DNA of 5,629 nucleotides, taken from a virus (taxonomy: Duplodnaviria; Heunggongvirae; Uroviricota; Caudoviricetes). Each line of letters begins with the position of its first letter. The stretch's first letter is position 1. The position numbers were made by a program, and so were the translations under genes. Of this stretch, positions 3,100 to 3,440 are shown piece by piece. The notes below the pieces were generated by a model, which ran no database searches, was not told where the DNA came from, and saw only the letters and a list, made by a program, of their open reading frames with translations. The stretch lies in IMG/VR virus record IMGVR_UViG_2660238352_000003; one strand, 5' to 3'.

Positions 3100-3147
3100 T
3101 GTTTTTAGAGTTGTGGTGAATGCGCAGGCTGATGCGCGAAAGACATT

Positions 3148-3171
3148 GCAGCTATTGCGGAAAATAGCTGC
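3148..3171 (+). other. Perfect 9-bp stem / 6-nt loop hairpin in the early-left leader
   Basis: GCAGCTATT (3148-3156), loop GCGGAA, AATAGCTGC (3163-3171). It lies about 45 nt downstream of the predicted PL start and is not followed by a U-tract, so it is not a terminator. Confidence 0.35.
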
Positions 3172-3293
3172 TCGGCGGGGCAATTAAACGCCCGTGAGAG
3201 TCTGAAATAACCGCAAGCCGGAGATCAGCACCGGTCACCACAACAGCCACTGCTTTGGCGGTACCAGTTTGTACACTTGCTTCCGGCTGGTAC

Positions 3294-3391
3294 CGCTCTT
3301 TTTACAAAACAGAGAAGAGCATCACCGGACGACGGGCTCATAACCCAATCCATCCGGGCGGCTGCCACCGCAGGTGTTCTTCTCTGTTTTG
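3294..3391 (+). other. BoxA-like motif followed by a long-range 16-bp RNA stem in the 5' leader of yfdP
   Basis: CGCTCTTTTTA (3294-3304) resembles boxA (CGCTCTTTA). CAAAACAGAGAAGAGC (3305-3320) can pair with GTTCTTCTCTGTTTTG (3376-3391) as 16 bp with one G-U, enclosing about 55 nt. No plausible protein-coding frame with an ATG start and RBS was found in this leader. Confidence 0.3.
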
Positions 3392-3440
3392 TGGAGAAAC
3401 CAACCGACCTTGCAGGGTCGATATGATGAGGAGCAGCAAA

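Follow-up and report, generated by a model that had tools for sequence, protein, structure and literature searches.

Predicted tRNA-like RNA modules flank a terminator in the early-left leader of a lambdoid prophage

Lambda 6S RNA and StxS are short terminated transcripts from PR', a constitutive late promoter at which read-through depends on Q, while the antisense RNAs C4 of phages P1 and P7 and CI of phage P4 are cut from longer transcripts by RNase P. PasD is a prophage small RNA (sRNA) that was found bound to Hfq by RIL-seq, was confirmed by Northern blotting, and was assigned a common origin with the sRNA STnc100 (bioRxiv 10.64898/2026.05.13.724894). Copies of STnc100/PasD have been reported from the late region, close to Q, stx2, and a sialic acid esterase gene (bioRxiv 10.64898/2026.05.13.724894; PMC12370729). 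Here, we describe the early-left leader (positions 3106-3440) in the IMG/VR virus record IMGVR_UViG_2660238352_000003, a stretch of 5,629 nucleotides (nt) that was analyzed as a whole and is referred to below as the window. The closest relative of this leader RNA is STnc100/PasD. We predict that the leader is a noncoding RNA in which two conserved tRNA-like folded modules, A and B, have a terminator between them, and that these modules are members of phage RNA families that are widespread and mostly lack annotation, and do not form a lambda- or HK022-type antitermination site.

A first-pass annotation of the window had already read the leader as a structured noncoding RNA transcribed from the early-left promoter, PL, and our analysis upholds this view. 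When folded as a whole, 3106-3440 does much better than shuffled sequences (z = -6.3), and covariation in related prophages likewise favors structure, both for a long stem and for the fold around a 9-base-pair (bp) hairpin. The leader contains the following features.

3110-3244, plus strand: module A, a type-1 tRNA-like scaffold RNA, from minimum free energy (MFE) fold, relatives, and covariation
3122-3137, plus strand: D-like arm of module A, GCGC-AGGCUGAU-GCGC, with a 4-bp stem and an 8-nt loop
3138-3216, plus strand: hypervariable insert of module A, 79 nt here, holding the 9-bp hairpin (3148-3171)
3217-3235, plus strand: T-like arm of module A, GCCGG-AGAUCAGCA-CCGGU, with a 5-bp stem that abuts the acceptor-like 3' strand and a 9-nt loop
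3257-3304, plus strand: predicted intrinsic terminator, with an 11-bp stem (3257-3267/3287-3297), a 19-nt loop, and the U-tract UCUUUUUA (3297-3304)
3304-3392, plus strand: module B, with a 20-bp outer helix (3304-3323/3373-3392), an inner hairpin (3325-3357), and a second hairpin (3358-3371)
3391-3404, plus strand: conserved single-stranded GUGGAGAAACCAAC, Shine-Dalgarno (SD)-like, without a start codon at normal spacing
3405-3420, plus strand: hairpin H, CGACC-UUGCAG-GGUCG, followed by the SD GAGGAG (3428-3433) and the yfdP ATG (3441)

The acceptor-like stem of module A comprises 7 bp (3112-3118/3236-3242), can extend to 3110-3119/3235-3244, and is followed by an AAU linker at 3119-3121. Compared with shuffles, 3110-3244 gives z = -3.6. 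We collected relatives by exact matches to a 14-mer at the 5' end of the module and an 18-mer from its last hairpin, each of which matches more than 120 IMG/VR contigs, and extracted 114 distinct module A units from the IMG/VR matches. Type-1 units share a core that reads N7-AAU-GCGC AGGCUGAU GCGC on the 5' side and GCCGG AGAUCAGCA CCGGY-N7' on the 3' side, with N7 and N7' complementary to each other. The window's module departs from this 52-nt consensus core by one mismatch, a U for C at 3235 that keeps a G.U pair. The insert measures 12 to 166 nt among the relatives and cannot be aligned between lineages; pair counts were made on an alignment from which inserts had been removed.

Across that alignment, 97.8% of cells pair, and in 13 pairs both partners change. 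Covariation is seen at each of the 7 acceptor-like and 4 D-like pairs; none of 500 shuffles reached the observed values, and shifting the pairing partners along the alignment abolishes the signal. The acceptor-like helix occurs in at least 36 different sequences and is 98.6% paired, and its variants include 17 G.U against 4 A.C combinations, an excess that places the module A RNA on the plus strand of the window. Conservation of the core is partly a matter of ascertainment, since every search pinned one end, whereas the acceptor covariation lies outside the search patterns. The D-like loop GCUGA(U) is complementary to UCAGC of the T-like loop, which makes a contact between the two loops plausible; these positions are invariant among the relatives, so that covariation neither supports nor contradicts it. 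The perfect 9-bp hairpin picked out in the first pass does exist (3148-3156/3163-3171), but it sits within the hypervariable insert and is imperfect in most relatives. The window's insert is also found in units of P1 and mEp460. Taken together, these features indicate that module A is cloverleaf-like, with the geometry of a tRNA whose anticodon arm has been swapped for a variable insert.

Downstream of module A, the GC-rich hairpin at 3257-3297 (-21.2 kcal/mol) runs immediately into UUUUU, the arrangement by which an intrinsic terminator is predicted from sequence at 3257-3304. Homologous terminator hairpins keep a GGCGGU/ACCGCC base, vary in the upper stem with compensation, and end in CCCUUUUU(C)AC or CCCAUUUUCAC. 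A terminator of this kind lies within 120 nt of the A unit in 48 of 114 cases, compared with 4 of 114 for shuffled flanks. The window thus contains an sRNA-like unit, a structured domain and then a terminator, as the first-pass annotation had considered possible.

That annotation also placed a boxA-like motif at 3294-3304, and here it does not stand. The string CGCTCTTTTTA is present at this position, but CGCUCUUUUUA represents the 3' arm of the terminator together with its U-tract. Relatives carry tails of ACCGCCCUUUUU(C)AC or ACCGCCCAUUUUCAC at the same site, and the hairpin itself covaries; the window's GCUCUU therefore amounts to one C-to-U change in a stem base. Against the boxA consensus (C)GCUCUU(U)A(ACAA), only GCTCTTT fits at 3294-3304, where relatives read CGCCCUUUUU. 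A search with the rrn/lambda boxA consensus at up to 3 mismatches returned 6 matches versus 5.6 expected, none of them at 3294-3304. A lambda-type boxB (5-bp stem, pentaloop) is likewise absent just 3' of the boxA position, and the adjacent structure is the 89-nt module B.

Module B folds much better than shuffles (3304-3392, z = -7.3). The 16-bp stem seen here in the first pass is in fact longer, with arms at 3304-3328 and 3368-3392 that fold as the 20-bp outer helix. In an 11-sequence alignment that includes diverged phages, 11 of the 34 consensus pairs show compensatory double changes. The inner hairpin ends in the tip GGG-CUCAUAA-CCC (3334-3346), whose loop we take to resemble the anticodon loop of initiator tRNA, and the anticodon arm of D3 tRNA-Met has exactly the sequence of a variant tip, GGGCCCAUAACCC. 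Module B has this anticodon-like loop and no D arm. Conservation of the tip extends into its 3' flank (YYCAUAWCCCAAYC) in the 31 distinct contexts that were recovered with that same motif. B units abut the 5' side of A units without a spacer in P1, HK633, and many contigs.

Beyond module B, the stem of hairpin H covaries in the related loci L027, L365, L376, and L411 while its UGCAG loop is conserved, which suggests that the loop is a candidate binding site for an RNA-binding factor. The arrangement of terminator, module B, and hairpin H precedes different first genes (yfdP, rdgC-like, or yfdR-like) and therefore appears to be a generic early-left leader, not a yfdP-specific element. The 14-mer GTGGAGAAACYAAC occurs once per early operon in divergent orientation (3391-3404, plus strand; 1437-1450, minus strand), and it is likewise present in both operons of 28 related loci; the loci L027 and L408 have an identical variant of it on both operon sides. 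The minus-strand copy has U instead of C at the degenerate Y position and forms the ribosome-binding site (RBS) of the next gene in the PR operon. Each copy has a UGCAG-loop hairpin nearby. A crude enrichment test gave a weak result (253 versus 137). The recurrent unit consists of a (G/U)UGCAG-loop hairpin with a covarying stem, a GUGGAGRA or GAGGAG SD, and a start codon. It is found at 3405-3443 (plus strand), 4789-4824 (plus strand, before yfdR), and 1495-1432 (minus strand), as well as before several early genes in L411, L446, L027, and L376. A nutL/nutR-like pair is not favored, because the copy on the right serves the next gene as SD and spacer and because many genes are preceded by similar hairpin-plus-SD units; we read the 14-mer and hairpin copies as a recurrent intercistronic hairpin-plus-RBS unit.

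The surrounding region is a lambdoid prophage immunity region of the SfV/mEp460/Stx2c-phage type, with these features upstream of the leader.

2306-2983, plus strand: CI-like repressor gene, with the Pfam domains HTH_3 and Peptidase_S24
3004-3026: terminator hairpin 3' of the CI-like repressor gene
3046-3099, plus strand: PL-like promoter of the sigma-70 type and its operators, with -35 TTGACA (3070-3075), -10 TACATT (3094-3099), and a spacer of 18

The assignment of PL made in the first pass is sound: TTGACA-18-TACATT at 3070-3099 is accompanied by repeated operator palindromes and is a repressor-controlled PL-like promoter. Operator palindromes of 18 bp flank it at 3046-3063 and 3081-3098, another copy lies at 2267-2284 at the divergent PR-like promoter, and the window contains 6 matches in all versus 0.03 expected. 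PL starts near 3106, and the order downstream is yfdP (3441), yfdQ (DUF2303), and yfdR (HD-domain family). In BLAST comparisons with E. coli genomes and phages, phages of a different immunity type become homologous from 3107, 3236, or 3256 onward, positions that coincide with RNA module borders, and the block 3110-3245 is found by itself on P1-type plasmids.

We also considered whether the leader is protein coding, and we rejected that reading. Pfam has no match for a 49-amino-acid (aa) open reading frame (ORF) with a TTG start (3277-3426) or for an upstream extension of yfdP in the same frame (62 aa), in line with the earlier statement that the leader holds no credible gene. Both are missing in the diverged homologues L027, L376, and L411, which still keep the RNA helices through compensatory changes. 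Short upstream ORFs starting in the loop of hairpin H were set aside as well, as their peptides differ between relatives. Pfam gave no match for YfdP, the 49-aa ORF, or orf33 of SfV, and no N-like protein family was detected, which agrees with the earlier view that yfdP is not N-like, and the first gene of the operon differs between relatives. In mEp460 (L001, 4709-5262), small "hypothetical protein" coding sequences (CDSs) lie over and around the RNA modules, two of them on the opposite strand, and in Klebsiella phage Magnus (L226, 1479-4418) a row of 30- to 70-aa ORFs lies upstream of tRNA genes. The small CDSs annotated over RNA modules in these two phages are probably annotation artifacts over arrays of noncoding RNA.

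A units are hosted by lambdoid phages, P1, Pseudomonas phage D3, and lytic Klebsiella phages; lytic Ackermannviridae and N4-like phages also carry them, the N4-like copy in a gene-free stretch. Their D-like and T-like loops are conserved among phages of Enterobacterales, Pseudomonas, and Burkholderia. Many units lie in arrays of tRNA genes, always in the orientation of the tRNAs; units also occur in tandem arrays and inside the tRNA clusters of P1, D3, and lytic Ackermannviridae. Where an A unit lies within 1 kb of a tRNA gene, it is on the same strand as the tRNA in 21 of 21 cases; six units are only 3 to 8 nt from a tRNA, and NCCA follows the stem in 12 of 114 units versus about 2 expected. 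In P1 (L224, 2920-3830, between tRNA-Thr and tciA), four B-type and four A-type units stand amid other sequence. The A-type units there are type 1, a short variant, type 1, and type 2, one of them with the window's insert, and the region is annotated with one small hypothetical ORF only. D3 has an A unit between tRNA-Met and tRNA-Gly, and HK633 has B-A units between PR'/qut and the holin gene, i.e., in the late-operon leader.

Of 5426 complete E. coli genomes, 586 (~11%) carry module A with its terminator (type 1). No feature is annotated over module A in the E. coli records listed, and phage records show "hypothetical protein" or no annotation at this place. When genome contigs were scanned with the 18-mer, 7 of 120 matches were true units, including ones from Stutzerimonas, Stenotrophomonas, and Pseudocitrobacter; most of the matches were rejected as chance occurrences from GC-rich genomes. 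In one IMG/VR contig (L219), ARAGORN calls a tRNA-Pro(CGG) inside the 166-nt insert of an A unit, which would be a tRNA-like sequence nested within a tRNA-like scaffold.

On balance, the leader is probably a mosaic of three autonomous RNA modules from which PL gives a terminated, tRNA-like RNA of ~200 nt. The promoter and operators, the folds, the covariation in A, B, H, and the terminator stem, the family distribution, and the tRNA-array context are the observations behind this explanation, and from them we infer how efficiently termination occurs, whether the RNA is processed and stable and acts in trans, and what module B does. Once the repressor leaves PL on induction, module A would be transcribed first and would fold cotranscriptionally as a tRNA with a variable "cargo" domain in place of the anticodon arm. 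A fraction of the polymerases, probably the majority, would stop at 3297-3304 and yield an RNA of ~200 nt (3106 to about 3303) with an STnc100-like layout. With its tRNA-like ends, this RNA would probably be a substrate of tRNA-processing enzymes, plausibly trimmed to ~131 to 135 nt and highly stable, and it would probably work in trans, or as a particle complete in itself, and not on the operon that encodes it. Read-through transcripts would carry module B and hairpin H as a generic 5' untranslated region of whichever gene comes first.

Several results weigh against this explanation. PL is repressed in lysogens, whereas STnc100/PasD RNAs are detected in ordinary uninduced cultures. A promoter-like site lies directly upstream of only 7 of the 114 A units; most units are embedded in longer transcripts or arrays, and an independent sRNA gene is not their general mode. 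The terminator has a 19-nt loop and may be leaky for that reason. As for the tRNA likeness, ARAGORN found no tRNA genes in the window, and the Rfam tRNA model matched no A or B unit in the window or in P1. Within the window, no antisense target for the module A insert was better than shuffled controls.

We weighed four rival explanations, which in descending order of weight are cis-acting processing or stability signals, put-like antitermination, tRNA relics, and a riboswitch-type attenuator. As processing signals ("tRNA punctuation"), A and B would be cut by RNase P and other tRNA-processing enzymes, freeing an mRNA with a protective 5' helix and serving no function in trans. Such a role would suit the tRNA-like geometry, the co-orientation with genuine tRNAs at spacings of 3 to 8 nt, and the spacerless B-A junctions of P1, HK633, and many contigs, and a C4-type RNA, of a class known to be RNase P substrates, is present in the same prophage. 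We nevertheless find it unlikely: it leaves unexplained both the hypervariable 12- to 166-nt insert and the near-invariant loop sequences, and many A units precede a terminator of their own rather than a gene. Decayed tRNA genes or recombination scars without present function are decidedly improbable. The tip of module B does equal the anticodon arm of a phage tRNA-Met, and the modules do lie at mosaic junctions, yet compensatory changes keep four helices of module A as well as those of module B, and the cores are near-invariant across distant phage groups and hosts. Least credible of the four is an attenuator or riboswitch, in which module A would sense a ligand or factor and govern formation of the adjacent terminator. 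A structured domain directly upstream of an intrinsic terminator invites this idea, but A and the terminator recombine separately, given that in many phages a homology block has 3236 or 3256 as its first position and that P1-type plasmids carry A by itself. In addition, we saw no alternative partner of the terminator arm whose pairing is conserved, the insert is hypervariable, and the riboswitch matches in Rfam are noise.

Put-like antitermination, which we retain as a minority possibility, would have module A, or module B with hairpin H, bind polymerase and carry it through the leader terminator and later ones in a phage that lacks N. Like the put sites of HK022 and HK639, module A is predicted to be a structured RNA just past PL and before terminators in a lambdoid phage without an N gene. 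Its position directly after PL and directly before a terminator speaks for this idea, as do the lack of an N-like protein among YfdP, the 49-aa ORF, and SfV orf33, the further terminator-like sites that each early operon has downstream (4709-4728; the isrK terminator near 998), and the relatives found in HK633's late-operon leader; D-like and T-like loops shared by Enterobacterales, Pseudomonas, and Burkholderia phages would fit contact with a conserved host machine. However, a covariance model that we built from HK022 putL, HK022 putR, and the annotated HK639 putL, and that scores its own members at 60 to 94 bits, found nothing in 3106-3440 with filters off; its best score in the window was 7.6 bits, outside the leader. 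Module A matches put in neither sequence nor structure, being a multibranch RNA of ~131 nt where put has ~70 nt and two stem-loops. The window has one A unit only and none downstream of PR, hence no left/right pair. The inserts are hypervariable and shrink to 12 nt, and module B lies downstream of the terminator that would need suppression. A units also occur in tandem arrays, in the tRNA clusters of P1, D3, and lytic Ackermannviridae, and in the gene-free stretch of an N4-like phage, and the family extends to tRNA arrays of non-lambdoid phages. In tRNA arrays like those of P1, D3, and lytic phages, which hold the same modules, one would not expect an antitermination site dedicated to PL.

Returning to the mosaic of modules that we prefer, a bolder extension is possible but doubtful: A units might be natural mobile "tRNA scaffolds" with interchangeable cargo and module B a decoy of tRNA-fMet, together making up an anti-defense and host-takeover toolkit. 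The acceptor-, D-, and T-like parts would then recruit the host machinery for tRNA maturation and stability, the insert would serve as swappable cargo, which might be a decoy, aptamer, or antisense RNA, and in this prophage the chassis would be the very first transcript after induction. The initiator-like anticodon stem-loop of module B would divert factors or toxins that recognize tRNA-fMet. If true, an RNA-level toolkit of this kind would be common to lambdoid phages, P1, D3, and lytic phages.

Whatever its role, a strongly covarying structured RNA carried by about 11% of complete E. coli genomes, P1, D3, and hundreds of viral contigs is absent from Rfam 15. Its distribution means that lambdoid early-left and late leaders and phage tRNA arrays share the same RNA modules. 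For annotation, several of the "hypothetical proteins" called over the modules are probably spurious. The coordinates of promoter, module, and terminator also make read-through of an early terminator in N-less lambdoid phages directly testable.

How does this leader compare with described RNA families? When Rfam 15 was searched at E ≤ 10 (window; 3090-3450), the leader matched only noise, including TLS-PK1 and microRNA models. A Guanidine-I riboswitch match in the leader was rejected as noise (20.7 bits against a gathering score of 63). Like a tRNA, module A has a 7-bp acceptor-like helix, a D-like stem of 4 bp that closes an 8-nt loop, a T-like stem of 5 bp set directly against the 3' strand of the acceptor, and a potential D-loop/T-loop contact, and A units lie in tRNA arrays on the same strand and at tRNA-like spacing. 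Unlike a tRNA, it has no anticodon arm and a variable insert in its place, a 3-nt linker, a 9-nt noncanonical T-like loop (AGAUCAGCA), and a predicted Watson-Crick pairing between loops instead of the canonical elbow. With lambda 6S RNA and StxS, the leader would share a short transcript ending at a promoter-proximal terminator as the default product of a phage promoter; the promoter here is PL, with no known antiterminator. C4 of P1/P7 and CI of P4 resemble it as small phage RNAs in which a long terminal helix encloses hairpins, but the C4 model (RF01695) has no match in the leader, and no complementary target was found in the window.

The sole C4 match in the window lies elsewhere, at 886-973 on the minus strand (78.8 bits; gathering score 45), near an isrK match at 998-1074 on the same strand (58.7 bits; gathering score 50). 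Both fall within the 5' half of a 382-aa ORF (286-1434, minus strand). This ORF is probably overextended; a start near 832 is more likely for the antirepressor-like gene and would match the c4-icd-ant layout of P1 immI.

STnc100 (RF02076; gathering score 47 bits) does not match the window unit at E ≤ 10 in 3090-3450. In SfV, a type-2 unit and terminator at the same position relative to yfdP match STnc100 over its full length (39.5 bits, E = 8e-7), a score below the gathering score, and the type-2 unit of P1 matches the STnc100 core (33.9 bits). The SfV RNA module stands ~700 nt from PL and is not fused to it; between PL and the type-2 unit (L002, 3289-3830) come orf33, which encodes 98 aa and has no Pfam match, and what appears to be a small ORF on the other strand. 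Within the window, the yfdQ-yfdR spacer (4685-4865, plus strand) has a weak STnc100 match (23.4 bits, E = 0.05) and a terminator-like hairpin, GCCCCUGCGGGGGC-AUUUAU, at about 4709-4728.

In the literature searched, we found no description of the core sequences or of phage tRNA-like noncoding RNAs of this kind, and the architecture of a tRNA scaffold with cargo and its link to tRNA arrays appear not to have been described previously. The window unit differs from STnc100 in its D-like and T-like arms (AGGCUGAU and AGAUCAGCA) and from the reported STnc100/PasD copies in being driven by a repressed PL rather than lying in a late region. As in STnc100, however, a multibranch domain closed by a terminal helix is followed by an intrinsic terminator, and STnc100-like type-2 units have different arms and share their first 15 nt, GUUGUGGUGAAUGCG, with type-1 units. 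The correspondence with STnc100/PasD runs through the whole RNA: a closing helix that begins with UGGUG is followed by AAU and a GC-rich hairpin, then come an internal domain and a CCGG hairpin that stacks on the closing helix, and an intrinsic terminator ends the series, all of it found in lambdoid prophages. Compared in this way, the type-1 family is clearly related to STnc100/PasD in predicted design and, at both ends, in sequence, and it would tie these poorly understood sRNAs to a broader tRNA-derived design of conserved chassis and swappable insert.

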